DNA from: an uncultured Verrucomicrobiota bacterium
GTDB taxonomy: Bacteria > Verrucomicrobiota > Kiritimatiellia > RFP12 > UBA1067
DNA length: 60,763 bases
Assembly: GCA_945834475.1 (NCBI GenBank)
Contig: CAMAHK010000004.1
Location: forward strand, 1 to 60,763
Reading direction: 5' to 3'
Numbering within the stretch: the first letter of the stretch is position 1; each line of letters starts with the position of its first letter. A program made the translations under genes and the position numbers. The notes under the pieces are model-generated. The model saw only the letters and a program-made list of their open reading frames with translations. It made no database searches and had not been told where the DNA came from. Shown piece by piece: positions 1-39,912 of the stretch.

Positions 1-1100
1 CTGTTGAACCCTTGCCGGATAGATCGCGCCACAGGCGCACGGGAAGCGGCACAGGAACGCGGGCACGGCGTACCATTGCCGCGACACGTCCGGCGGACGC
101 GGGCGCAAGGGCGGGCGGTTTTGCCGCGTTTCCGTCGAACTGTCGAACGTCCGGCGGCACGGCGGCGAGATCGAGGGCGGGCGCGGTTGCCGGATAGATC
201 GCGGCGAACTGTCGAACCGTTCCGGCGAACTGTCGAACCGTTGCCGCGAGACCGAACCGCGAGACGTTGCCGCCTGTCACCGTGTCACCCGTCGAACGGT
301 TGAACGGTTGCCGGACAAGCCGGAAGCGGGACGCGGGACAATGTGCCGCGAGATCGAACCGCGAGACGTTGAACCGTTCCGGCGAGATCGCGCCACAGGG
401 CGCACGGCAAGCGGCACATGGACGCGGGCACGGCGCACCCTTGCCGCGACACGTCCGGCGGACGCGGACGCAAGGGCGGGCGGTTTTGCCGTGTTTCCGG
501 CGAACTGTTGCCCGTCCGGCTCATGGCGCACCCGTCGAACGGTTGAACGGTTGCCCGTCCGTCCGGCTCATGGCGAGTAGATCGCGGCGAACTGTTGAAC
601 CCTTGCCGCCTGTCGAACTGTCACCCGTCCGGCGGCATGGCGGGCGAGATCGGCACGGCGTACAGATCGAGGGCGCACCGTCGAACCCTTGCCGGATAGA
701 TCGCGCCACAGGTCGAGGGCGGCGAGATCGAACCGCGAGACGTTGCCGCCTGTCGAACTGTCACCCGTCCGGCGGCATGGCGGGCGAGATCGGCGCACAG
801 GGCGCACGGGAAGCGGCACAGGAACGCGGGCACGGCGCACCCTTGCCGTGACACGTCCGGCGGACGCGGACGCGAGGGCGGGCGGTTTTGCCGCGTTTCC
901 GTCGAACTGTCGAACGTCCGGCGGCACGGCGGCGAGATCGAGGGCGGGCGCGGTTGTCGGATAGATCGCGTCGAACTGTCGAACCGTTCCGGCGAGATCG
1001 AGGGCGCGGGCACGGTTGCCCGTCCGTCCGGCTCATGGCGCACAGATCGAACCGCGACGTTGCCGACTGTCGAACGGTTGAACCGTCGCGCCTGTTGAAC

Positions 1101-1174
1101 GGTTGCCGATTGCGGGGACATTGCACGGGGCATTAAAGGCGCGTTAAATGCCATTGCAACGGGCGCACAGATCG
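1101..1174 (+). repeat. Direct repeat copy L (candidate att-like boundary)
   Basis: GGTTGCCGATTGCGGGGACATTGCACGGGGCATTAAAGGCGCGTTAAATGCCATTGCAACGGGCGCACAGATCG. It is nearly identical to 7602-7677 (2 substitutions plus a small indel by eye). It is the only AT-richer non-word island inside the array. Confidence 0.7.
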
Positions 1175-2680
1175 GCGCGGGCACGGTTGCCGGATAGATC
1201 GAGGGCGGGCGAGATCGAACCGCGAGACGTTGCCGCTTGTCACCGTGTCACCCGTCGAACCGTTCCGGCGAGATCGCGCCACAGGGCGCACGGTTGCCGG
1301 ACAAGCCGGAAGCGGGACGCGGGACAATATGCCGCGAGATCGAACCGCGAGACGTGGCGCACGGTTGCCGCCTGTTGAACCCTTGCCGGATAGATCGCGC
1401 CACAGGCGCACGGGAAGCGGCACAGGAACGCGGGCACGTCGAACCCTTGCCGCGCGACACGTCCGGCGGACGCGGACGCAAGGGCGGGCGGTTGCCGCCC
1501 TGTTTCCGGCGAACGGTTGCCCGTCCGGCTCATGGCGCACACGTCGAACGGTTGCCGCCTGTCGAACGTCCGGCTAGATCGAGGGCGCACCCGTCGAACG
1601 GTTGAACGGTTGCCGGACAAGCCGGAAGCGGGACGCGGGACAATGTGCCGCGAGATCGAACCACGAGACGTTGAACCGTTCCGGCGAGATCGGCGCACAG
1701 GGCGCACGGCAAACGGCACAGGGACGCGCACCCGTCGAACCCTTGCCGGATAGATCGCGCAACGGGGCGAGGGCGGCGAGATCGAACCGCGAGACGTTGC
1801 CGCCTGTCGAACGGTTGCCGCCTGTCGAACCCGTGACCGTTGCCGGATAGATCGCGGCGAACTGTCGAACCGTTCCGGCGAGATCGGCGCACAGGGCGCA
1901 CGGCAAACGGCACAGGGACGCGGGCACGGCGCACCCTTGCCGCGACACGTCCGGCGGGCGCGGACGCGACGGCGGGCGGTTGCCGCCCTGTTTCCGGCGA
2001 AACGTCGCGGGCGTGGCGGGCACGGTTGCCCCTGTTGGCGCACGGTTGCCCGTCCGTCCGGCTCATGGCGGGTAGATCGGCGCGGAAGGTTGCGCACAGA
2101 TCGGCACGGGGCACGGTTGCCGGACAAGCCGGAAGCCGGACGCGGGCGAGATCGAACCGCGAGACGTTGCCGCCTGTCACCGTGTCACCCGTCGAACGGT
2201 TGCCCGTCCGGCACAGATCGCGCCACAGGGCGCACGGCAAGCGGCACGGGGACGCGGGCACGGTTTCCCCTTGCCGCGACACGTCCGGCGGACGCGGACG
2301 CAAGGGCGGGCGGTTGCCGCCCTGTTTCCGGCGAACTGTCAAACCGTCCGGCTCATGGCGCACACGTCGAACGGTTGCCGGATAAGCCGGAAGCCGGACG
2401 CGGGCGAGATCGGCACGGGGCACGGTTGCCGCGAGATCGAGGGCGAGACGTGGCGCACCGTCGAACCGTCACCCGTCGAACCCGTGCCCGTTGCCGGATA
2501 GATCGCGCCACAGGGCGCACGGCAAACGGCAAAGGAACGCGGGCACGGTTTCCCCTTGCCGCGACACGTCCGGCGGACGCGGACGCGACGGCGGGCGGTT
2601 GCCGCCCTGTTTCCGTCGAACTGTCGAACGTCCGGCGGCACGGCGGCGAGATCGAGGGCGGGCACGGTTGCCCCTGTTGC

Positions 2681-2710
2681 GCACATAAGCGCACATAAGC
2701 GCACATAAGC
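2681..2710 (+). repeat. 3 x 10-bp perfect tandem repeat (GCACATAAGC)
   Basis: Read directly. It lies at the edge of an AT-richer 150-bp island (2711-2860) that has CGAAAACGAAAA / TTTTCGTTTCGG inverted repeats and a GGCATTT-TGTC-AAATGCC hairpin at 2825-2842. Confidence 0.9.
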
Positions 2711-3479
2711 GGATAAACGAAAACGAAAAGAAAAATACAAATGTAGAACACTACCCGAACCCGAAACGCGCACACGCGCCCGCGCACGTACACGCGAGGG
2801 GCGGCGGGTTTTCGTTTCGGTTTCGGCATTTTGTCAAATGCCTGTTTTCGGTTTCGGTTGCCGCGAGATCGAACCACGAGACGTTGAACCGTTCCGGCGA
2901 GATCGGCACAGGGCGCACGGGAAGCGGCACAGGAACGCGGGCACGTCGAACCGTTGCCGCGACACGTCCGGCGGACGCGGACGCAAGGGCGGGCGGTTTT
3001 GCCGCGTTTCCGTCAAACTGTCGAACCCTTGCAGCCTGTTAAACCCTTGCCGCCCGTCGAACGGTTGCCGGACAAGCCGGAAGCGGGACGCGGGACAATG
3101 TGCCGCGAGATCGAGGGCGAGACGTGGCGCACCGTCGAACGGTTGAACCCTTGCCGACTGTCGAACCCTTGCCGGATAGATCGGCGAGGGCGGTTTACTG
3201 AATAATCAAAACACGCGGCAATAAATACCCGTATGAAACACGTACAGACGCAAAAACGCGACGGCGCAAGCCCGTTTTTAATCCGCGAATCACAAACTAC
3301 TCACAAACTATGGGGGCGGATTTACCCGTATTTGTTAGGGATTGTTTCAGTTTGTCCGCAAACTGCCCGCCCACGGAAATTTTAACTTGCGAAATTTGCG
3401 CTATACTTCCCCACGTTCGCACGGCATAAAAGCATTTATTACAATGCGTGACGGGCGGCGAAAACTTGAAAGGTTAAAA

Positions 3480-3797
3480 ATGAAAGGCAAGAGCAAAGGC
3501 AAGAGCAAGGGCAAGGCGGTAAACGTTCCCGCCGTTGTTTCGGTTGAAATCCCTACACGTGAACAGATAGAGCGGGCGCGGGAAGCGAGGGTAAAGGAAA
3601 TCCGGCGCACCCTTGCGAAATGCGGGGACGAAATGGAGCGCGGGCGCACCCGCTTTGTTTTGGTTTGTGACCCGTCACACATTTACGCGGTACGTCAATA
3701 CCTTGCGCAAGCATGGGGCGAGTACGCGCCGAAGGTTGAAGCGGGTTTGATTGTCACGGCGGCGAAAAAGCCCGTAAACGCGAAAGCGGCGAAATGA
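3480..3797 (+). CDS. Hypothetical small basic protein (first gene of the integrase module)
   Basis: ATG at 3480 follows GAAAGG. The track ORF 3342..3797 starts at TTG and ATG 3444 is also possible, so the start is uncertain. The N-terminus is KGKSKGKSKGK. The stop overlaps the next start (ATGA). No family recognised. Confidence 0.5.
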   Translation: MKGKSKGKSKGKAVNVPAVVSVEIPTREQIERAREARVKEIRRTLAKCGDEMERGRTRFVLVCDPSHIYAVRQYLAQAWGEYAPKVEAGLIVTAAKKPVNAKAAK

Positions 3798-4060
3798 AAG
3801 CGAAAGCGAAAAAGACGGACGGCAAGGCGGAAACGTCGAAGCGGAAGCCGAAAAAGGCGCAAGCCGTCCCCGTCACCTTGCGCGGGCTGTTGCTCGAAGT
3901 GATCGAGGGTGAGCGGCTGATCGCTGATCGCCTTGAATCCGTCCGGCGGACATTGTGGCGCATGAGCGCGGTACGTGAATACAACGGCAAGAGCGGAGCG
4001 GCGGACGGCGCGGACGCGCCGGAAGCCGGAAAGGCGGATGCGAAAGGCGGCGAGGAATGA
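3794..4060 (+). CDS. Hypothetical protein
   Basis: 88-aa ORF, ATGA-coupled to both neighbours, with a Lys-rich N-terminus. No family recognised. Confidence 0.5.
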   Translation: MKAKAKKTDGKAETSKRKPKKAQAVPVTLRGLLLEVIEGERLIADRLESVRRTLWRMSAVREYNGKSGAADGADAPEAGKADAKGGEE

Positions 4061-4293
4061 GCGACACGCGGGCGGTTATGCTTGCGCCGGACGGGCACGG
4101 CGGACTTTACCCCATACAGGAAATGGGCGCGGCGAACGCGCCATATTTGCGGGTATGCGTGGACGCGCACCCGTTCGTAAACGGGCGGGCGAAAACTATC
4201 ATATCAAAGTATTTTCCGAAATACAGGGCGGACGGCGTGGAGTTGCACCTATACGGAAAACTTAAAACCCCGAAAGCGAAAGGCAAAAAATGA
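4057..4293 (+). CDS. Hypothetical protein
   Basis: 78-aa ORF, ATGA-coupled on both sides. No family recognised. Confidence 0.5.
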   Translation: MSDTRAVMLAPDGHGGLYPIQEMGAANAPYLRVCVDAHPFVNGRAKTIISKYFPKYRADGVELHLYGKLKTPKAKGKK

Positions 4294-4604
4294 AACGTGA
4301 AACGGAATCGGTTATCATGTCTATTTGCGCGGCTGATACCACTATCAAAAAGGCGGACATGGCGGCGGCGTTGTCCCTGTTGCGCGGGGATAAGGCGGAC
4401 GCGGAAAAATGCGACGTGCCGCTCACACGGGCGGAAGCCGCTAAAATGTTGCGCGTATCGCGGGCAACCGTGACGGCGTGGGGAAAGCGCGGAATAATCC
4501 GGCGTATGGAGATAGCGGGACGGCGTAAGGCGTTGGGGTTTTCGCGGCGTTCCGTTGTCGAACTTTTGAACGGCACAAAAGCCGGAACGGGCGGCGAGGA
4601 ATGA
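4290..4604 (+). CDS. Excisionase/AlpA-type helix-turn-helix DNA-binding protein
   Basis: LTRAEAAKMLRVSRATVTAWGKRGII matches the excisionase-family HTH pattern. It is ATGA-coupled and sits in an operon ending with an integrase. Confidence 0.65.
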   Translation: MKRETESVIMSICAADTTIKKADMAAALSLLRGDKADAEKCDVPLTRAEAAKMLRVSRATVTAWGKRGIIRRMEIAGRRKALGFSRRSVVELLNGTKAGTGGEE

Positions 4605-5449
4605 GCGGGGCACGTACAGAAAAGCAACCGCCCGCAATACTTGTTTTGACGCAAGTGATACGGGATTATCGGGCGGTAAATGACCCCGCCGGACTTGGCG
4701 CGTTATTGTTTCCGTTGGAGCAATGTTTATCCGGCGAGGAATACACCCCGCCGAAAACGGGCGCGGAATTAAACATTTTCAACCGCCTTTTAGACGCGGC
4801 AAAGCGCGGAATTGAATCTTATGAGAAAATGTCTAAACGCGGACAAGCGGGCGCGGCGGCAAGTAATGCGAAGCGGACGCAAGCGGCGCAACCGTCCGCA
4901 CCCGTCGCGGTAGATCGCGGCACGGGCGGCAAGCCGGACACGTCTAACCGTCACCCGTCGAACGCGCCACAGGGCGCACCCGTCCGGCGAGAGATCGCGC
5001 CGCAGGGCGCGGGCACGTCGAACAAGCCCGCAACCGTTCCGGCGAAGCCGTCCGCACCCGTCGCGCCTGTCCGTCGAATAATCGAATCGGCACTGGACAA
5101 GCGCACGGGCGGGGCGCGGGCGTTAGCCGATTGTATAGGGGACATTGTCGCGAGGTTTGGACGCGACGGCGCGGGCGTAAGTATTGAGGAAAAGATCGCG
5201 GGCGAACCCGTCGCGGCGGCACTTGAAATCTCGGGCGAGACGGGAAACGCGCGGGCGGTAAACACTTTCAAGAAGTTGCTACGCACAAAAGGCGCGGGCG
5301 CGTTTAGTGATCAATTATTCGCTTTTTATTCGGAGTTGAAACAGGGCGAAACGCCGGACAATTACGGGGCGGCGTTGGTTTCGCGCCTGTCGAAGTTGCC
5401 GGACGTTCCGGCACGGGAACGCGGCGCGGAGAAAGGCGCGGCGGAATGA
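4601..5449 (+). CDS. Hypothetical protein with a Pro/Ala-rich centre encoded by array-like words
   Basis: 282-aa ORF, ATGA-coupled. DNA at 4890-5090 reuses array words (GTAGATCG, GTCACCCGTCGAAC, CGCCACAGGGCGCACC, GAGATCG). The C-terminal tail PDVPARERGAEKGAAE resembles the integrase tail. Confidence 0.55.
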   Translation: MSGARTEKQPPAILVLTQVIRDYRAVNDPAGLGALLFPLEQCLSGEEYTPPKTGAELNIFNRLLDAAKRGIESYEKMSKRGQAGAAASNAKRTQAAQPSAPVAVDRGTGGKPDTSNRHPSNAPQGAPVRREIAPQGAGTSNKPATVPAKPSAPVAPVRRIIESALDKRTGGARALADCIGDIVARFGRDGAGVSIEEKIAGEPVAAALEISGETGNARAVNTFKKLLRTKGAGAFSDQLFAFYSELKQGETPDNYGAALVSRLSKLPDVPARERGAEKGAAE

Positions 5450-5769
5450 TACGCGAGTTTTCAAACAGGCGCATAGCGCGGCAATTTAAGCGCGGCAATT
5501 TGCGCGGCGCGGCTGATTTGGGAATGAATCACACGGCGCGGGCAATTCGCTATGATATGCGCTTGCGCGGCGAGACGTGCGCGGGCGCGGTTGCGCCTGT
5601 CGGCGGCGTTTGCTATAATATGCCCCGTTGCGCCGCAATGGGAAGTAGAACACCCGCGACGAAACAAGATAACGGGATAAAAACATTTCCCCGCCCTGTA
5701 AACGGTCTACCGCGTACCGTGGTATGTTCTACCCGTTTACGGGGTGGGGTTTTTTGTGAATGGAAGTAG
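5446..5769 (+). CDS. Doubtful ORF (possibly only a short coupled peptide)
   Basis: The start is ATGA-coupled to the previous gene. However, the ORF runs through a TGcTATAAT box and a terminator-like hairpin, and its composition is poor for coding. Confidence 0.3.
   Translation: MIREFSNRRIARQFKRGNLRGAADLGMNHTARAIRYDMRLRGETCAGAVAPVGGVCYNMPRCAAMGSRTPATKQDNGIKTFPRPVNGLPRTVVCSTRLRGGVFCEWK
5611..5619 (+). promoter_or_regulatory. Extended -10 box TGcTATAAT upstream of the integrase
   Basis: Read directly. It lies about 155 nt upstream of the int ATG. Confidence 0.35.
5689..5755 (+). terminator. Intrinsic-terminator-like hairpin immediately upstream of int
   Basis: CCCCGCCCTGTAAACGG (5689-5705) pairs with CCGTTTACGGGGTGGGG (5733-5749). 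This gives 17 bp including 2 G-U pairs, a 27-nt loop and then TTTTTT (5750-5755). Confidence 0.5.
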
Positions 5770-5775
5770 AACACC

Positions 5776-7221
5776 ATGAGCGAAAAAGAGACACAGGGAC
5801 GCAAGGGCAACGGGCACAAAGGCAAGGAACGGCGCAAGGGCGCGGGCACACTTGAAAAGCGCGGGCGCGTTTATATTGCACGTTGGACGGTGGACGGGAA
5901 AAGGTACTCACAGAGTACGGGCACGGCTGACCGACGGGAAGCGGAGATAAAACTTGCTGAATTTGTCGCGCCGTTTCAGTTGAAGGACAAGGCGGAACGG
6001 TTGGAAGCGTTCGCCGGAAAACTTGGCGGCGTTCAAAGCCGATTGAAAGAGTTTGAGGACACGCGCCCCGCGTTGAAGATCGCGGACGCATGGGAAGCAT
6101 TTGTAAAAAGCCCTAACCGCAAGGACACGGCGGGCGCGGCGCGGTTGCGCATTTGCGAGGGGTGGGCGCGGCGTTTCGTTTCATTCATGGCGGAACGTTT
6201 CGCGGACGTTTCAGAAATGAGGAACGTGACGAAAGAACACGCGCACACGTTCGCGGCGGACGGCTACACGGGCGTTAGTAATTCGGTACGTAATCAAGCA
6301 ATATCGTTTTTTCGCATGATGTGGCGCGTACTGATCGCGGACGGCACGGCGCGAATTACTGAAAACGTATGGGACGGCATACAGAAGAAACACGAAACGC
6401 ACACGCGGCGGCGTGAGTTGACCGTCGAAGAGTTGGCGCGGGTTTACAAAATCTTACAGGGCGAAATGCGGCTATTGTTTTCTGTCGGCATTTACACTGG
6501 GCAACGGTTGGGTGATTGCGCTTGCTTGGATTGGGGACAAGTTGATTTGATACGCGGGCGCATTTCCCTTGTGCCGCGAAAGACGGCGCGGAAAACGGGG
6601 CGCATGGTTGTTATACCGTTGCACGTCAATTTGCTAAATATGCTTTTGGAAATTCCGGCGGCGAACCGTCGCGGGTACGTTATGCCGCAATGCGCGGAAA
6701 TGTATCTAAAACAGGCGGGCGAACTGTCGGCGCGGTTTATGCGCGTTTTCAAGTCGGCGGGAATCGAGACGGCAACCGAAGGACAAGAGGGAAGCCGAAA
6801 ACGATGTCTTGTCGGTTTCCATTCCTTACGGCATACGTTCGTATCACTTGCCGCAAATGCGGGCGTTCCGCTTGCGTTCGTGCAGTCGATAGTGGGACAT
6901 TCAACCGTAGAAATGACGCGGCATTATTTCCATGAATCGGAAGCGGCGTTAAATTCGGCGGTGTCCGCGTTGCCGGACATTGGGGCGGCGGGCGCGACGG
7001 GCGGCGAACTGTCGGCGCGGGTACGGTCTATATGTGCGTTGGTTGCCGAACTGACGGAAGCCGAGCGGGGCGAACTGTTGCGCCACTTGAACGCGGGCGG
7101 CGCGGTTGCGCCCATTCCGGCGGTAGAGGTTGCAACCGTGCCCGCGTTGCCGTGTCCGGCGGCGGACGTTCCGGCACAGGAACGCGGCACGGCAAAAGGC
7201 GCGGCACAGGCGGCGGCGTGA
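5776..7221 (+). CDS. int: Tyrosine-type site-specific integrase
   Basis: 481 aa. The catalytic pattern is R (TGQRLGD), H-x-x-R (HSLRHTF) and H...Y (GHSTVEMTRHY). It has a basic arm-binding-like N-terminus and a low-complexity C-terminal tail. Confidence 0.9.
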   Translation: MSEKETQGRKGNGHKGKERRKGAGTLEKRGRVYIARWTVDGKRYSQSTGTADRREAEIKLAEFVAPFQLKDKAERLEAFAGKLGGVQSRLKEFEDTRPALKIADAWEAFVKSPNRKDTAGAARLRICEGWARRFVSFMAERFADVSEMRNVTKEHAHTFAADGYTGVSNSVRNQAISFFRMMWRVLIADGTARITENVWDGIQKKHETHTRRRELTVEELARVYKILQGEMRLLFSVGIYTGQRLGDCACLDWGQVDLIRGRISLVPRKTARKTGRMVVIPLHVNLLNMLLEIPAANRRGYVMPQCAEMYLKQAGELSARFMRVFKSAGIETATEGQEGSRKRCLVGFHSLRHTFVSLAANAGVPLAFVQSIVGHSTVEMTRHYFHESEAALNSAVSALPDIGAAGATGGELSARVRSICALVAELTEAERGELLRHLNAGGAVAPIPAVEVATVPALPCPAADVPAQERGTAKGAAQAAA

Positions 7222-7293
7222 TATTTCCCGTCCGGCACGTCCCCGCGTTGGGGCGGTTGGACGGGTGGAAAAGACAAGAGGAAACAAAGAACC

Positions 7294-7425
7294 ATGAAAG
7301 CGAAAACAACGGCGAAGAAAACCACAGCGGCGAAGGTTGCGGCGAAGCCCGCGAAGAAGCCCGCGAAGGTTGCGGCGAAGCCCGCCCCCGCGAAAAAGCC
7401 CGCGAAGAAGCCCGCGAAAAAGTAA
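7294..7425 (+). CDS. 43-aa Lys/Ala/Pro-rich histone-H1-like (Hc1/AlgP-like) basic protein
   Basis: Not in the ORF track (under 60 aa). The sequence is MKAKTTAKKTTAAKVAAKPAKKPAKVAAKPAPAKKPAKKPAKK. The ATG is preceded by AAGAGGAAACAAAGAACC and followed by a terminator hairpin. Confidence 0.6.
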   Translation: MKAKTTAKKTTAAKVAAKPAKKPAKVAAKPAPAKKPAKKPAKK

Positions 7426-7447
7426 GCCGGAAAATTTGCGAGACATT

Positions 7448-7486
7448 ACGCCGCGTTCCGTAAATGGGGCGCGGCGTTTTCTTTTC
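7448..7486 (+). terminator. Rho-independent terminator
   Basis: ACGCCGCG (7448-7455) pairs with CGCGGCGT (7470-7477), followed by TTTTCTTTT. Confidence 0.6.
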
Positions 7487-7601
7487 CACGTGACCGTTCC
7501 GGCGGGCGGCGCGAAGGTACTACCCCGCCACGGTTGAAACATTCGGCGCGGGAAGGTGTCGGCGTTATAGGCACACTTTTTTTTAACGGGGTACGGCGCA
7601 C

Positions 7602-7677
7602 GGTTGCCGATTGCGGGGACATTGCACGGGGCGTTAAAGGCGCGTTAAATGCCGTTGCAACGGCTGCGCACAGATCG
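7602..7677 (+). repeat. Direct repeat copy R (candidate att-like boundary)
   Basis: Near-identical to 1101-1174. The array resumes exactly here, 177 bp after the last gene of the integrase module. Confidence 0.7.
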
Positions 7678-8005
7678 AGGGCGTACCATCGAACCCTTGC
7701 CGCCTATCACCCGTCGAACCGTTGCCGGATAAGCCGGAAGCCGGACGCGGGCGAGATCGGCACGGCGCACCGTTGAACGGTTGCCGGATAGGTCGCGCCA
7801 CAGGGCGCACGGCAAGCGGCACAGGAACGCGGGCACGGCGCACCCTTGCCGCGACACGTCCGGCGGACGCGGACGCAAGGCACACGGTTGCCCGTCCGTC
7901 CGGCTCATGGCGGGCGAGATCGAGGGCGGGACGTTTCCGCCTGTCGAACGGTTGCTGGATAGATCGCGGCGAACTGTCGAACCGTTCCGGCGCACCGTCC
8001 GGCGG
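7602..8005 (+). repeat. Mosaic repeat array, right block
   Basis: Same vocabulary and orientation as 1-3190. It includes one copy of the 115-bp module (about 7791) and one of the second module (about 7721). Confidence 0.8.
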
Positions 8006-8239
8006 TGGCGTTTCGGCGCGTGGTTTTTAGTGGTATTTTCAAAAGCCGCAAGGCGGAAAAGCACGGGAAAGTATAGGAAAGACGGCGGGCGGCGTGGCGT
8101 TTCTGTTTTTGTCTTTCAAAAATCGAAGCGAACCGAAAACAAAGGGCGAAACGCCACAAATGCGCGTATTTACGGCGCGAACGTTTGCAAATGCCACAAG
8201 CGCGGGCGAATTATGGTATAACGTACGCCATGAGACCGT

Positions 8240-8413
8240 GGCGCAACTTCAAGACCAACCTGTGCTGTCCCTCGGAGTCCCTCTGTGCTTGATGAACTCC
8301 TCCCTGATAGCGGACGGTGATCTGCCCCGGTCCTCGGCTATCTGATTGGCGGAGCGTCCGCAGGCGGCGAGGAATTCCAGCCGGTTCCTGTCGTCGAATT
8401 TCATGTGTTTCAT
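8240..8413 (-). pseudogene. IS30-like transposase N-terminal HTH fragment (57 codons)
   Basis: My translation is MKHMKFDDRNRLEFLAACGRSANQIAEDRGRSPSAIREEFIKHRGTPRDSTGWS*. This resembles the HTH_38-type N-terminus of IS30 transposases (..GRSPSTISREIKRN..) and no catalytic domain follows. Confidence 0.4.
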
Positions 8414-8650
8414 CGTTCTTTTCCTTGTTCGTTTTGATCGGGCATTCGCGAAGGCTCACGCCCCTCTCCGAAAGCCCTGACACACGGATTCTACCGAATT
8501 CTGAAACTAAACGCGCGTCCCCTCCCCGGGGAGGGTAGTGGAAGAAAGACCACCTCCATCAAGAAGAGGTAATAATTACAGATAGTAAACGCTTCGGAAA
8601 AGAGGGTTTACTTCTGGAAGCCACAGAGCTCGGAATCCTCCGGGCATGAG

Positions 8651-8691
8651 ACAAAAGGGGGATTGCGCCAAGAGGATGATTAGGATAGAAT
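8651..8691 (+). promoter_or_regulatory. Promoter of the GH51 gene (upstream box + N22 + TAGAAT)
   Basis: ACAAAAGGGGGAT (8651-8663), a 22-nt spacer, then TAGAAT (8686-8691) lying in the 12-bp palindrome TAGAATATTCTA (8686-8697). GGAGG at 8709-8713 precedes ATG 8723. Confidence 0.45.
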
Positions 8692-8722
8692 ATTCTAATC
8701 ATAGACTTGGAGGATATACGTT

Positions 8723-10699
8723 ATGCTGACACATGTTCTGGTGGCTGCCTTGCCGTTGCTGACTCTTGCGCCTGATGCGGAGAAGACGTCCTTGGACGTC
8801 CCCGAGACGCTCTACGGCATTTTCTTTGAGGATATCAACTGGGCGGCGGATGGTGGCATCTACGCCGAGATGGTCGCGAACCGCGGGTTCGACTGGCGCA
8901 CGGAGCGTCCCGGCTACTGGGAATACGATTTCCGCGGCGGGGCCGAGGCGCGCGTGACGCAGGAATGGGCGAAGCCGCTCTATCCCGAGAACGCGCAGTA
9001 CCTGCGCATCGAGGCGATCGGCGCGGGCACGGGGTGCGGCGTCAGAAACCGCGGCTTTGCGAACGGTATGGTCGTGAAGGCGGGCGCGAAGTACGACCTC
9101 AAGTTCTACGCGCGCGGCACCGACGGCTACACGGGCAGCCTTCGCGTCGTTCTCGAAAAGCCGGCGGCGGAAAAGGGCAAGGCGCCCGAGCTCCTGGCCG
9201 AATACAAGGTCGCGCCCGGTGAGCTCAAGGTCGGAAAGGCGGGCGCGACGCCGTTTGACCGGGAACTCGCGGACTGGACGAAGTTCACGGCCGTCCTGGA
9301 GCCGACGGCGGACGCGACGAACGCGACGCTCTCGATTCTTCTCGATACGAAGGGCATCGTCGACCTTGAGTTCGTCTCGCTCTTCCCTGAGGAGACGTAC
9401 AAGCGTCAGCCGAACGGGCTGCGTCCCGACCTCGTCGAGAAGCTGGCCGCGCTGCAGCCGAAGCTCATCCGTTTTCCGGGCGGCTGCATCGCCGAGGGCG
9501 ATGACTTCATGAGCTGGTTCGACTGGAAGCGCTCGGTCGGTCCCGTCGAACGCCGCTATCTGAACGAGAACCGCTGGGATACGGAAGGCGGCAAGCGCAA
9601 CCTCGTCTACTGGCAGACGCAGGGTCTCGGCTACTTCGAGTACTTCCGACTTTGCGAGGACCTCGGCGCCGAACCGCTCCCGATCTGTCTCGCGGGGCTC
9701 ACCTGCCAGTATCGCCGGCCGACCCACTACGCGCCGCTCGATTCGCTCGACTATTTCGTGACGAACATCTGCGACCTCATCGAATTTGCGACGGGCAATC
9801 CGGCGACGAATCCGTGGGCGAAGATCCGCGCCGAGATGGGACATCCCGCGCCGTTCGCGCTGCACTATGTCGGCATTGGCAATGAGAACTGGGACAAGCC
9901 GTTCTTCGACCGCTTCCCGCTCATCGCCTCGAAGGTGAAGGCGCTCTATCCGAACGTGACGATCGTGAGCTCGTCGGGTCCGAATGTGGACGAGGGCCGC
10001 TGGGAGCGCGCGTGGGAGTTCATGACGAAGTATGGTGCGGAGATCTTGGACGAGCACTACTACCGTCCGCCGGACTGGTTCCTCAAGAACGCGAACCGCT
10101 ACGACACGTATTCGCGCACGGCCCCGAAGGTCTATGCGGGCGAATACGCCTGTCACGAGAAGGGACGCGAGAACTCGCTTCACTCGGCGATCTGTGAGGC
10201 GGCGATGATGTGTGGCTTCGAGCGCAACTGCGACGTCGTCCGGATGAGCTCGTACGCACCGCTCTTCAACAATCTCGATGCGCCGGGCTACCATTGGCGT
10301 CCCGACATGATCTGGTTCGACAAGACGCGTGTCTTCGGCACGCCCAACTACTACGTGCAGAAGCTCTTCGCGACGAACCGTCCCGACGTAACGGTGCCGG
10401 TGAAGGCGGGGGTGAATTGCGCGACGGCGTTCTGGTCGGTGGGTCAGAAGCTGGACGGGACGACGATCGTGAAGCTCGTCAATGCGGCGGGCGAGGCGCA
10501 GCCGATTGCGCTGGATCTCGCGCTGTCGGCGGGAACACTGACGGTCGAGACCGTGACGGACGCCGATCCGAACGCGGTCAATACGATTGACGATCCCGAA
10601 CGCGTGACGATCAAGACGACGACGGAGGCGTTTGCGGGCGGTTCGCTCACGCGCGAACTCGCGCCGTGGAGCGCGACGGTTCTCAAGCTCGCGAAGTAA
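8723..10699 (+). CDS. GH51 alpha-L-arabinofuranosidase (with N-terminal CBM-like domain)
   Basis: 658 aa with a signal peptide. It carries LYGIFFEDINWAADGGIYAEMVANRGFD, IGNENW (acid/base region) and YAGEYAC, all typical of GH51. Confidence 0.85.
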   Translation: MLTHVLVAALPLLTLAPDAEKTSLDVPETLYGIFFEDINWAADGGIYAEMVANRGFDWRTERPGYWEYDFRGGAEARVTQEWAKPLYPENAQYLRIEAIGAGTGCGVRNRGFANGMVVKAGAKYDLKFYARGTDGYTGSLRVVLEKPAAEKGKAPELLAEYKVAPGELKVGKAGATPFDRELADWTKFTAVLEPTADATNATLSILLDTKGIVDLEFVSLFPEETYKRQPNGLRPDLVEKLAALQPKLIRFPGGCIAEGDDFMSWFDWKRSVGPVERRYLNENRWDTEGGKRNLVYWQTQGLGYFEYFRLCEDLGAEPLPICLAGLTCQYRRPTHYAPLDSLDYFVTNICDLIEFATGNPATNPWAKIRAEMGHPAPFALHYVGIGNENWDKPFFDRFPLIASKVKALYPNVTIVSSSGPNVDEGRWERAWEFMTKYGAEILDEHYYRPPDWFLKNANRYDTYSRTAPKVYAGEYACHEKGRENSLHSAICEAAMMCGFERNCDVVRMSSYAPLFNNLDAPGYHWRPDMIWFDKTRVFGTPNYYVQKLFATNRPDVTVPVKAGVNCATAFWSVGQKLDGTTIVKLVNAAGEAQPIALDLALSAGTLTVETVTDADPNAVNTIDDPERVTIKTTTEAFAGGSLTRELAPWSATVLKLAK

Positions 10700-10702
10700 G
10701 CG

Positions 10703-11940
10703 GTGATGACGCGGTTCGTGCTGATTCTGGCGTTCTTGGCCGCGACGTGTATCGCGGCGGAGCCGCTTCAGCACGGACCGCAGACGCTGTCGGGTACGGT
10801 GACGTTCGCCGAGCCGAAGGGGGCGTTCTTCTTCTTTCGGACGGATGCGGGAGCGTGGTGGCGCGCGGCGTTGAACCACGACCAGCCGGAGACGCGTCCC
10901 GGTGATTACGTGACGTTGCGAGGCGATGTTCTGTACCAAACGGTCAACAATCGCATTGATCATTGTGTCTTGATGTCTGTCGAACATCGTGAGGATTTTG
11001 AGCCGTCTTATGAGAATGTCTCTGTCTCGCAGCTCCATGAACACCCGGTCATGGGTTCGACGGAACCGGATCGTTTTGCGCGGCTTGTGAGCGTGTCGGG
11101 ACGTGTGACGGACATCAACCGGCGCATGACGGCCGTGCAGGTGATGCTTTCGGATGGGCAGAAAAGTCTCACGGTCACGTCCTTCCTGCGGGCAGAGTGT
11201 CCGCTCCCCGAGGAGCCGCCGCTTGCACGGACGCTGGCGGGCGGACTGCTGATGATCCTGCAGGAGGCCGTCGGGAATGCGATTCGTCATGGTCAGGCGC
11301 GGCACGTGGCCGTGCGCGTCAGCTTCGAGGCGCATCGCCTGGTGCTGACGATCGTCGACAACGGGTGTGGCTTTGATTGTGGCGCAACGTCGGCGAAGGA
11401 CCTTGGCCTCGGCTTCTGGACGCGCTGCGGACGATTGCGGCGGGAGGTCCCTTTCAGGAAGAGACGCTGCCGGAGGTGCCGAGCATGCTGACGGCGCGCG
11501 AGATGGACGTTCTCAAGTATCTCGCCCTCGGCAAGACGCGCGAAGAAGTCGGCCTTATCCTCGGCATCGCCCATTCGGCGGTGGCGATGCCCGGCGAGCC
11601 CTATGCCGTGTCGTTCCCGATCAACCCGCTTTCCGATCTTCCCGGCGACAAGATCGTCTCCGTCGACCTGTCGTATTCCGCCGACTTCGGCGAGGAGAAG
11701 TCTGTCCCGATGACGGCTGCGGCGAAGGCCGACGTGGAACGGCACGAAGAACGGACTTTACGCCGAGCTCGACCAGCACAAGGCGCATCCGCTTTTCGGC
11801 GGCCGCCGCATCATCAGTCATGTCGCGAACGGCAATCCGTCCGCGCAGCTCGGCGCGCCGGGGACGCCGAAGGAAGAGACGCCGGGTACTTGGCTTGCGT
11901 GACGCTCGACGACGGCACCAAGCCGACCGTCTGGCGCTGA
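10703..11940 (+). pseudogene. Patchwork of gene fragments: sensor N-terminus, HATPase_c fragment, LuxR-HTH fragment and others
   Basis: A signal peptide and sensor-like N-terminus jump directly to LLMILQEAVGNAIRHG..IVDNGCGFD, with no TM or HisKA domain. Another frame holds LDALRTIAAGGPF..LTAREMDVLKYLALGKTREEVGLILGI, a LuxR C-terminal domain with no receiver domain. Unrelated fragments follow. Compare the intact pair at 41040-43557. Confidence 0.6.
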
Positions 11941-39792: not shown

Positions 39793-39899
39793 AGCGCCAC
39801 GGCGTGAGGTCACGCCGGGTACTACTTGGTCCTGCCACGGCGTGAGGTCACGCCGGGTACTATTTGGTCCTGCCACGGCGTGAGGTCACGCCGGGTACT
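39793..39899. repeat. Three tandem REP copies
   Basis: (GGTCCT)GCCACGGCGTGAGGTCACGCCGGGTACT occurs three times. Confidence 0.9.
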
Positions 39900-39912
39900 G
39901 TCTGGGGTGATT

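Follow-up and report, generated by a model that had tools for sequence, protein, structure and literature searches.

Bacterial mobile elements are normally gene-dense. Iteron arrays, such as P1 incA/incC, those of F, the lambda ori inside gene O, and the SPP1 oriL inside gene 38, span tens to a few hundred base pairs and are built from one 17–22-bp unit in regular phasing. The arms of known phage attachment sites (attP) are ~100–250 bp long and carry 2–5 arm sites, which heterobivalent integrases of the lambda Int type need. Integrons combine a divergent IntI-type integrase and an attI site next to the array with cassettes that mostly contain open reading frames (ORFs); their attC sites are imperfect palindromes with an inverse core RYYYAAC, a core GTTRRRY, and a conserved hairpin. 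CRISPR arrays consist of near-identical 24–48-nt repeats at regular spacing, separated by unique spacers. Repetitive extragenic palindromic elements (REPs) and bacterial interspersed mosaic elements (BIMEs) are palindromic units, often of alternating orientation, dispersed in host intergenic regions. Cryptically simple sequences, reportedly introduced by Tautz, Trick and Dover in 1986, are said to have been described mainly in eukaryotes, and the tandem repeats of Borg elements, according to what Schoelmerich et al. reportedly found in 2023, occur in both non-coding DNA and disordered protein regions. Here, we describe a kilobase-scale array of reused short words in a small integrative element at the left end of contig CAMAHK010000004.1 (assembly GCA_945834475.1) from an uncultured, gut-type Verrucomicrobiota bacterium.

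The window, meaning the whole analysed stretch of 60,763 nt, contains two array blocks on the + strand, block A at 1–3190 and block B at 7602–8005. The original prediction, made from the sequence alone, presented them as a repeat array split by an integrase module. The array exists and is unusual. However, it makes up the non-coding half of the element instead of being host DNA split by an insertion, since both blocks and the gene module lie between two attachment (att) cores of one element. Related elements have the same array layout, which corresponds to no described repeat family. The original prediction already knew of none with this grammar; searches of Rfam, INPHARED phages, PLSDB plasmids, GTDB species genomes, and IMG/VR gave no match, and its membership in any known repeat family is unsupported.

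Composition and boundaries of the word array

The array is a non-coding, non-tandem mosaic of short words in a single orientation. Words of 12 nt present at least three times cover 85% of the array and 0% of an equal length of host DNA, and only 2 of its 1,894 distinct 12-mers have a reverse-complement counterpart. The word GTYGAAC occurs 46 times on the + strand of positions 1–3190 and 0 times on the − strand, against first-order Markov expectations of ~0.7 for GTCGAAC and ~0.4 for GTTGAAC. The tetramer GATC is found 40 times in the same interval (expectation ~11), each time inside AGATCG (expectation ~0.6), and CGATCT is absent. In block A, CGGTTGC occurs 31 times on the + strand and 0 times on the − strand. 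The counts of 18 GTYGAAC and 14 GATC originally given for the first kilobase were reproduced exactly, and the strict single orientation claimed for the words is confirmed. The array is also not a tandem satellite, because Tandem Repeats Finder detects no tandem unit spanning the array, but short local arrays alone, of which the largest comprises 1.9 copies of a 285-nt unit.

The array blocks contain no credible gene. Array autocorrelation is lowest at lag 3, while host coding sequences show a clear period of three. None of the six longest array ORFs matches a Pfam family significantly (best E = 0.039, at chance level and below the family cut-off). Rfam 15 gives no match at gathering thresholds in the whole window, and the single match with E ≤ 1 over positions 1–9000 is at chance level. 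The description of the blocks as almost stop-free was overstated, as 59 stops are present over the six frames; this is nevertheless ~2.3-fold fewer than the 134 ± 10 expected from composition, and the longest open run reaches 314 codons. The + strand of the array is purine-rich, as is the coding strand. ORF length is a poor guide to genes in this genome, where long antisense ORFs, typical at ~60% GC, shadow real host genes in several places. For example, the ORF at 8699–11335 (−) overlaps a real gene at 8723–10699 (+) that encodes an arabinofuranosidase-like glycoside hydrolase (Pfam ASD1_dom, Alpha-L-AF_C).

The array is not an assembly artefact. Two contigs from other samples, L001 and L002, were found by an exact-protein look-up of the integrase; these and the window are three independent assemblies that are identical over block A. 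The only two mismatches between the window and L001, at positions 8321 and 8398, are both in the host flank. The longest exact internal repeat measures 94 nt, which is shorter than the k of 141 in the MEGAHIT-style contig names. Contig L002 adds 1,008 nt before the window start and provides the leftward extension that had been suggested as a check: the array continues for ~647 nt beyond position 1, which brings block A to 3,838 nt, and then stops. It is followed on the left by ~220 nt of unique sequence and the left att core GCGAAATTATGGTATAA.

Both array blocks and the gene module between them belong to one integrative element of 9,079 bp. The element ends in two copies of GCGAA(A)TTATGGTATAA. 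The TTATGGTATAA cores are located at positions 140 and 9219 of L002 (the latter equal to window position 8211), 9,079 bp apart. The right att core, GCGAATTATGGTATAA, occupies 8206–8221 (+) of the window. The arrays total 4,242 bp, or 47% of the element. In the predicted excised circle, block B, which shares the vocabulary of block A, would lie across attP from it, so that the two blocks would flank attP. The physical association of the array with a tyrosine integrase and an HTH_17 protein is thus borne out, as all of them are parts of the same att-bounded element. A core-like motif, GGTTTTTAGTGGTATTTTCA, is located at 8022–8041 (+), ~170 nt inside the right core, with a second copy at L002 194–213, ~45 nt inside the left core. 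It is kept in the related elements L006, L008, L009, and L013 and is a candidate integrase site. The att core does not recur inside the array. The search for an empty site was negative, as every contig found with the flanking 54-aa host gene carries the element too; therefore, the case for mobility rests on the att repeats and on the differing insertion sites of the relatives.

The att core in the form AATTATGGTATAA (8206–8221; L002 135–150) resembles an extended −10 promoter element (TGnTATAAT) and the −10 element of the integrase gene of the same element. In L013, the att core at ~6988–7003 is 17 nt upstream of a tRNA-Lys(TTT) gene (7021–7096). Because of these two features, the family seems to integrate into promoter −10 regions, and the −10-like core left at the left junction (attL) points into the array. 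Contig L018 (reverse complement, from position 1473) carries the same element and flank as the window and diverges at window position 8626, so that strains also differ in the host DNA on the right side of the element. The divergent sequence holds another TTTTTGGTATAAT motif.

The array differs from the repeat classes that it resembles superficially. It was correctly distinguished from CRISPR, as its spacing is irregular and what separates the repeats also consists of recurrent words. It is also distinct from REP elements, because the words lack inverted copies and are not scattered over the host DNA of the window: array 9-mers cover ~3% of the remaining 52 kb of host DNA, equally on both strands, which is the background level. 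Three tandem ~38-nt units at 39797–39900, just after an ORF of 1399 aa, each contain the palindrome CGGCGTGAGGTCACGCCG and are probably the REP family mentioned in the original prediction; this REP-like element is unrelated to the word array. Neisseria intergenic mosaic elements (NIMEs), in which dRS3 repeats flank RS units, resemble the array in that few kinds of unit are joined by a short word that recurs at the junctions, and in their link to mobile-element integration. However, NIMEs are found at many loci of the host chromosome and are integration targets, whereas the array is internal to the element, is absent from the host flank, and lacks a junction with inverted repeats like those of dRS3.

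Modules and a conserved word in a family of elements

Module D1 is ~115–130 nt long and is repeated at a spacing of 285–606 nt. The repeat finder and alignment place eight copies in block A, at 20–149, 385–514, 787–916, 1393–1522, 1881–2010, 2215–2344 (the reference copy), 2500–2629, and 2898–3027, all on the + strand. Block B contains one more copy found by the repeat finder (7790–7919, +), the 3′ part of which is truncated. Of the ten copies of a ~115-bp module that had been noted originally, nine are present; the tenth, near 1688, is only the 5′ half of a truncated D1 (1681–1730, +), as recognized by sequence inspection. The second module, D5 (GGTTGCCGGAYAAGCCGGAAGCSGGACGCGGG...), was likewise reported in seven copies, and the repeat finder gives the same number, the first at 294–361 (+) and the others at 1280, 1596, 2103, 2361, 3051, and 7708. 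The hairpin module D17 (TTGCAAYGG / GGCATTAAA...TTAAATGCC) was found by the repeat finder in two copies, at 1099–1169 (+) and at the start of block B (7600–7670, +). Its equivalents are at L008 6020–6075, L010 98–160 and 5614–5650, and L013 1160–1215 and 6690–6740. The D17 core consists of TTGCAA...GG and a palindrome, which is GGCATTAAA/TTAAATGCC in the window and GCCCTTGCAAGGGC in relatives. These differing palindromes suggest a co-evolving dimer-binding site or a hairpin.

Twenty D1 copies from five elements keep invariant blocks of 10–11 nt, and the remainder of the module diverges. The invariant blocks are GAC(A/C)CGTCCG, ACGC, and GGCGGGCGGTT (also given as ACGGCGGGCGGTT). Copies from one element are closer to each other than to those from other elements. 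The folds of D1 have z-scores between −0.2 and −2.2, hardly better than those of shuffled sequences, and the structures differ among copies. The single conserved helix is invariant, shows no covariation, and contains a G-U pair in 19 of the 20 copies.

The ~120-nt repeat in one orientation, its 290–600-bp spacing, and the adjoining tyrosine recombinase give the array some likeness to integron cassette arrays, and GTTGAAC fits the GTTRRRY core. Unlike in integrons, the inverse core is missing (GTTCRAC 0 versus GTYGAAC 46), and D1 lacks the conserved fold of an imperfect palindrome, since the fold of its alignment has no conserved outer stem. The DNA between D1 copies has no coding signal, which leaves the would-be cassettes without ORFs. 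Moreover, a lambda-type integrase is encoded 2.6 kb from block A in the same direction as the array, and the ends of the element are ordinary att sites.

A unique island conserved within the array was delineated by alignment at 2679–2857 (+; DNA fold z = −3.4). It is composed of three GCGCACATAA repeats, an A-rich tract, ACTACCCGAACCCGAAACG, an alternating purine-pyrimidine tract, and a hairpin followed by a T-run, in this order. Related islands lie inside or beside the arrays of L008 (540–680), L006 (3400–3610), and L010 (250–480). Across the elements, two to three short repeats and ACTACCCGAAMCCGAAACG are kept, and the A-rich unit is element-specific. The alternating tract is ~30 nt long and prone to form Z-DNA, and the hairpin with the T-run is absent from L008. 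The island was seen only in elements that carry the gene for a 282-aa protein described below. Its composition makes it a candidate origin, origin of transfer, small-RNA gene, or other cis-acting site.

Five relatives with sequence context, L006, L008, L009, L010, and L013, share the order HTH_17 gene, integrase gene, array, att site, and the word arrays of all five are limited to the + strand. Array length varies from ~250 nt in L009 to 3.8 kb. The relatives end with the array, GGTTTTT(A)GTGGTATTT, ~190 nt, and AATTATGSYATAA, followed by host DNA that is unrelated among them; the AATTATGSYATAA core terminates the element in L008, L009, and L013. The 75-kb contig of L013 begins inside its array, as does the window. 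Protein identities among the relatives are 73–76% for the HTH_17 protein and 74–80% for the integrase, whereas the 8-mer vocabularies of the six arrays have Jaccard indices of only 0.05–0.18. Likewise, the N-terminal domains of the 282-aa proteins of the window and L008 are ~85% identical, as estimated by reading the alignment, and the Jaccard index of the two arrays is only 0.10. As the vocabularies diverge while the proteins stay similar, the bulk of the words tracks none of the proteins of the element. The context of GATC varies as well: in L013 it is within CGATCC, and one L006 array has no GATC.

A single word is shared by all the arrays. The hexamers GGTTGC/CGGTTG, present at 8–14 per kb with a +/− strand ratio of 15–75 in 6/6 arrays, are the only hexamer class that combines such density and strand bias in all six. 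Their extended consensus, GnACGGTTGC(C), is ~10 nt long and occurs at 9–14 per kb, about every 70–110 bp, in one orientation. In the window, the conserved word has 29 occurrences in the array blocks, all on the + strand, and 11 in the 52 kb of host DNA, and it is ~40-fold denser in the arrays than in host DNA. The window contains 49 matches compared with 14 ± 4 expected. In every relative, the word forms the −35 region of the integrase promoter.

Four other features of the arrays were considered and set aside. GATC sites, and Dam methylation with them, are not the key feature, because their density in the array is only ~2x that of the host, the surrounding word varies, and one array has none. 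Helical phasing is not needed to account for the weak autocorrelation at 11–12 nt in all arrays, which is explicable by word length alone. On inspection, the conserved motifs do not fit sigma-54 promoters or those of extracytoplasmic function sigma factors. GGGACG, a + strand-biased hexamer in 6/6 arrays, is also the AlpA-binding element of Pseudomonas aeruginosa (PMC9371919); the match was set aside as a coincidence, since the P. aeruginosa AlpA is a larger, different protein.

The element family is known from metagenomes only. The 282-aa protein falls into 24 clusters and the integrase into dozens of close clusters, all of them metagenomic and nearly all on contigs shorter than 8 kb. The profile search with the 282-aa protein found no relative in GTDB species genomes or IMG/VR and two short loci in JGI metagenome contigs. 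DNA patterns of the pre-array motif, the island, and the D1 core have 0 matches in IMG/VR and GTDB genomes, and the D1 pattern recovers the known copies in the fetched loci. Block A has no blastn match among PLSDB plasmids and INPHARED phages, and the 282-aa protein has no tblastn match among phages. More distant integrase relatives (48% identity), the prophage L016 and the small element L019 in a metagenome-assembled genome of Kiritimatiellae, have no word arrays, so the trait is confined to the clade with integrases that are ~60% or more identical. Hosts of the family are probably related to Kiritimatiellae, although there are only hints of this: the source label of one 48%-identical integrase, and a host flank rich in glycoside hydrolases.

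The L016 prophage encodes portal, terminase, and ClpP-type protease proteins and has the same integrase leader as the family. Beside its HTH_17-integrase module is a 2.3-kb gene-free region (7160–9490) that holds ATTGTCGCCTGRG five times as a direct repeat, along with numerous short repeats in direct and inverted orientation; this region did not score as a word array.

Genes, promoter, and leader of the element

The gene module begins with an AT-richer regulatory region (3191–3479, +) that contains a family-conserved TTTACTGAA...GCGGCAATAAA motif and element-specific short direct repeats. The following genes are all on the + strand. The first (3480–3797) encodes a 105-aa protein with a lysine-rich N-terminus and no family match. 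The second (3794–4060) encodes an 88-aa protein with basic tails and a single conserved helix (VRRTLWR); all six relatives have this protein, the family of which has no Pfam or PDB match. A 78-aa protein of unassigned function (4057–4293) is followed by the 104-aa HTH_17 protein of the Xis/AlpA type (4290–4604), which is 73–76% identical in all relatives.

The 282-aa protein (4601–5449, +) is predicted to consist of two helical domains and a disordered linker, and the linker-coding part, at ~4890–5100, is written in array words. The linker word segment at 4884–5065 (+) has 26-nt direct repeats at its ends. Neither the model nor the sequence of the protein has a significant match in the PDB. 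A profile search collected 170 representatives, most of which share the C-terminal domain. One remote homologue of this domain has a Pfam Phage_rep_org_N domain at its N-terminus (E = 1.5e-5, above the cut-off), and another remote homologue matches PHROG 2447, annotated as a replication initiation protein. These remote similarities make the 282-aa protein a weak to moderate candidate for a replisome organiser. The 3′ ends of its gene and of the integrase gene (5400–5442 and 7163–7205) share a ~43-nt segment, D18, with 91% identity, which encodes a similar C-terminal peptide, DVPAxERG...KGAA, in both disordered tails.

The integrase promoter (5591–5619, +) is formed by TTGCGC (5591–5596), a 17-nt spacer, and TATAAT (5614–5619), and its −35 region, CGGTTGCG, is the universal array word. 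The promoter of the relatives is GGCGGGCGGTTGCG...TGGTATAAT. The structured leader of the integrase gene (5620–5775, +) folds with z = −5.4 and has 18 covarying pairs over eight homologues. It contains a duplicated word with the ribosome-binding site (RBS; 5640–5654 and 5762–5775), an anti-word (5724–5732), and a terminator hairpin (5689–5756). The RBS word (GGAAGTAGAACACC) is ~14 nt long, and the anti-word (ATGTTCTAC) is able to pair with either copy; RBS words and anti-word change together in relatives (GTGAAAAGC, GTCAGAAAC, GTGAAATGC, GTAAGAAAC). Homologous leaders are at L009 214–395 and 3810–3990, L006 3834–4018, L013 4632–4808, L016 9842–10010, L008 3955–4135, and L010 3900–4080. The ~155-nt leader, which has no Rfam match, looks like an undescribed attenuator or translational switch. 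A 107-aa ORF that some gene callers place at 5446–5769 overlaps the integrase promoter and leader; its apparent homologues overlap the same conserved non-coding DNA, and the ORF is unlikely to be a gene.

The integrase is a lambda-type tyrosine recombinase of 481 aa (5776–7221, +) with an arm-binding-type N-terminal module and a disordered C-terminal tail encoded by array words. In the AlphaFold2 model, the N-terminal module is composed of three β-strands (residues 25–29, 32–39, and 42–47) and an α-helix (53–68), with predicted local distance difference test scores of 81–90, and is followed by core-binding and catalytic domains. The top match in the PDB is full-length lambda Int (1z1b, E = 2.5e-11, 404 aligned columns). 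Based on the modelled N-terminal fold and this match, the integrase is predicted to be heterobivalent and arm-binding, as lambda Int is. Downstream of the integrase gene are an ORF for a 43-aa Lys/Ala-rich, H1-like peptide (7294–7425, +), to which a tail in L006 is similar, and an intrinsic terminator that closes the gene module (7448–7477, +). The family-conserved motif GGTACTACC...GGCGCGGGAAGGTGT...GGCACAC with a T-run (7516–7584, +) precedes the array in relatives.

Origin and possible roles of the array

The array carries the traces of copying between short direct repeats. Dispersed, non-colinear array segments of 80–195 nt are 93–99% identical. The relative L012, which is 97–99% identical to the window around the linker of the 282-aa protein, lacks 156 nt of word DNA bounded by the 26-nt direct repeat. 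Within coding DNA, the words of each element's own array are most abundant in the part of the 282-aa gene that encodes the linker and in the part of the integrase gene that encodes the disordered C-terminal tail. Slippage, unequal recombination, and gene conversion, acting between short direct repeats, have this signature, and by such duplication and deletion the array grows, shrinks, and is homogenised. This mutational engine of copying, deletion, and shuffling is demonstrated, whereas the selection for binding sites considered below is inferred. The array appears to have been seeded from the integrase-promoter region of the element itself.

We tentatively favour, with somewhat less than even confidence, the view that the array is a multi-site protein-binding platform that acts at the DNA level and is built and renewed through duplications and deletions between repeats. 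The conserved word and D1 would provide multiple copies of putative sites for one of three family-wide proteins, namely the lambda-type integrase through its arm-binding N-terminal domain, the Xis/AlpA-like HTH_17 protein, or the 88-aa basic protein. In the excised circle, the array may form a binding platform or sink around attP and thereby act as a scaffold or by titration, so that integrase expression and the choice between excision and integration would depend on how much of the bound protein is free. Selection would keep many copies of the ~10-nt word and of D1. Of the three roles that were originally proposed, only an array that acts in cis and is owned by the element is compatible with the data.

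The binding platform would share features with the arms of lambda attP, namely a predicted heterobivalent integrase, oriented repeats, and arrays on both sides of the core in the circle. Several observations weigh against it. The conserved word differs from arm sites in that CGGTTGC is absent from ~200 bp on each side of the att core and then spans kilobases. The zone beside the core contains TAGTGGTATTT x2 and ATTATGCSGGA x4, which are better candidates for classical arm sites. The CGGTTGC sites are 20–465 bp apart at irregular intervals, while classical iterons are regularly phased. The integrase promoter of the window has only a truncated, D1-like upstream half. Array words invade disordered protein linkers and tails, which indicates a mutational process acting where sequence is unconstrained. 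Most of the array, its variable words, differs between elements with ~75–85% identical proteins, and this fraction is therefore unlikely to consist of sequence-specific binding sites. Slippage would also give a single orientation automatically. The single orientation had been taken as a pointer to a protein-binding or recombination substrate; the orientation is real, but slippage and unequal recombination yield direct copies only, so that orientation alone is no proof of function and is weaker evidence than was assumed.

The main rival is a non-adaptive origin of the array as cryptically simple stuffer DNA, a by-product of slippage and unequal recombination that is perhaps selected for length only, for example to fit the capsid of a helper, with the conserved word and D1 as the most-copied seeds. 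We regard this as possible, though less probable than the binding platform. It accounts for the near-complete turnover of vocabulary between relatives, the single orientation, the spread of words to disordered linkers and C-terminal tails, the 156-nt indel between direct repeats, the wide range of array lengths, the irregular site spacing, and the dominant short periods that differ between arrays (7–8, 5–6, and 11–12 nt). The array fits the definition of cryptic simplicity, which is a descriptive class only, in that short motifs recur in scrambled order much more often than by chance and in no regular tandem arrangement, and the presence of repeats in both non-coding DNA and disordered protein regions of a mobile element recalls Borgs. 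Borg repeats, however, are near-perfect tandem units, whereas the words here are imperfect and shuffled, and classical cryptic simplicity does not extend to a kilobase-scale array that makes up 47% of a 9-kb bacterial element and has a family-conserved word and module. Moreover, useless DNA is normally lost from the genomes of bacteria and mobile elements, yet 6/6 relatives examined keep arrays, and GnACGGTTGC and the D1 blocks persist at 74–80% integrase identity while the neighbouring array sequence is replaced. The identity of the array in three independent assemblies also argues against hypermutability on short time scales.

Two further readings in which the array is functional are possible but weaker. 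The array could be an origin, or copy-control or centromere-like iterons, read by the 282-aa replisome organiser with the origin inside its own gene, as in lambda O and SPP1 G38P; we consider this unlikely. In its favour are the domain structure of the protein, its remote homologues, the array words in its linker-coding region, the direct short repeats of the array, and an AT-rich island with three short repeats, an A-rich tract, and a hairpin that accompanies the 282-aa gene. However, at 4.2 kb with many different words and irregular spacing, the array is unlike iterons, and its vocabulary does not track the candidate initiator, as the comparison with L008 shows. L013 and L014 keep large arrays with D1 modules without a 282-aa homologue, the element encodes no ParA-type partition ATPase, and the protein does not resemble solved initiators in fold or sequence. 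The array might alternatively be transcribed, for instance from the TGnTATAAT-like attL core, into a non-coding RNA that acts as a sponge or scaffold for an RNA-binding factor, which is quite improbable in our judgement. The strict strand specificity of the words, the purine-rich + strand, the core aimed into block A, the lack of a predicted intrinsic terminator in block A before the island hairpin at 2825–2850, and the G-U pair retained in the D1 helix would suit such an RNA. The leader of the integrase gene demonstrates that the method finds RNA structure in this element when it is real. Function at the DNA level is therefore favoured over the RNA level, because the folds of D1 are inconsistent and lack covariation, Rfam is empty, and two terminator-like elements, a strong terminator and a second hairpin with a T-run, precede block B on its 5′ side. 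The host-side readings of the original prediction, an intergenic integration hot spot of the NIME/dRS3 kind or a scar pile of repeated integrations, draw only on the proximity of the integrase and the mosaic look, and have a very low probability. They are excluded by the location of both blocks inside the att-bounded element and by the relatives, which carry arrays with their own vocabularies in the same internal positions at unrelated host sites; the words are also absent from the 52 kb of flanking host DNA, and the array holds no repeats of the att core. A protein-coding repeat or an assembly artefact has a negligible chance of being correct. Gene callers place ORFs of up to 267–305 aa in the arrays, where stops are scarce, but word lengths are not multiples of three, and the missing period of three, the lack of significant Pfam matches, and the identical assemblies described above speak against both.

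Returning to the binding platform, we also speculate, more doubtfully, that the arrays represent an undescribed cis-acting class of word arrays specific to this clade of small integrative elements. Such an array could be a kilobase-scale directional decoy or landing field around attP that sets the threshold of integrase expression and excision or maintains the circle, and that is rewritten by a copy-and-shuffle process which also writes disordered protein segments.

A non-coding oriented mosaic that takes up nearly half of a 9-kb element is unusual, the more so as the relatives do likewise with other vocabularies. The arrays break short-read assemblies: nearly all relatives are on short contigs, and two long contigs start inside an array. 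Neither species-representative genomes nor IMG/VR include the family, and such elements are therefore systematically under-sampled. If the arrays are purely mutational, they offer a compact bacterial model of how slippage builds junk DNA and new disordered protein segments, which to our knowledge has been discussed so far mainly for eukaryotes and the giant archaeal Borgs. If the conserved word and D1 are binding sites, the arrays would be natural large-scale decoy or scaffold DNA that controls a lysogeny-type switch.

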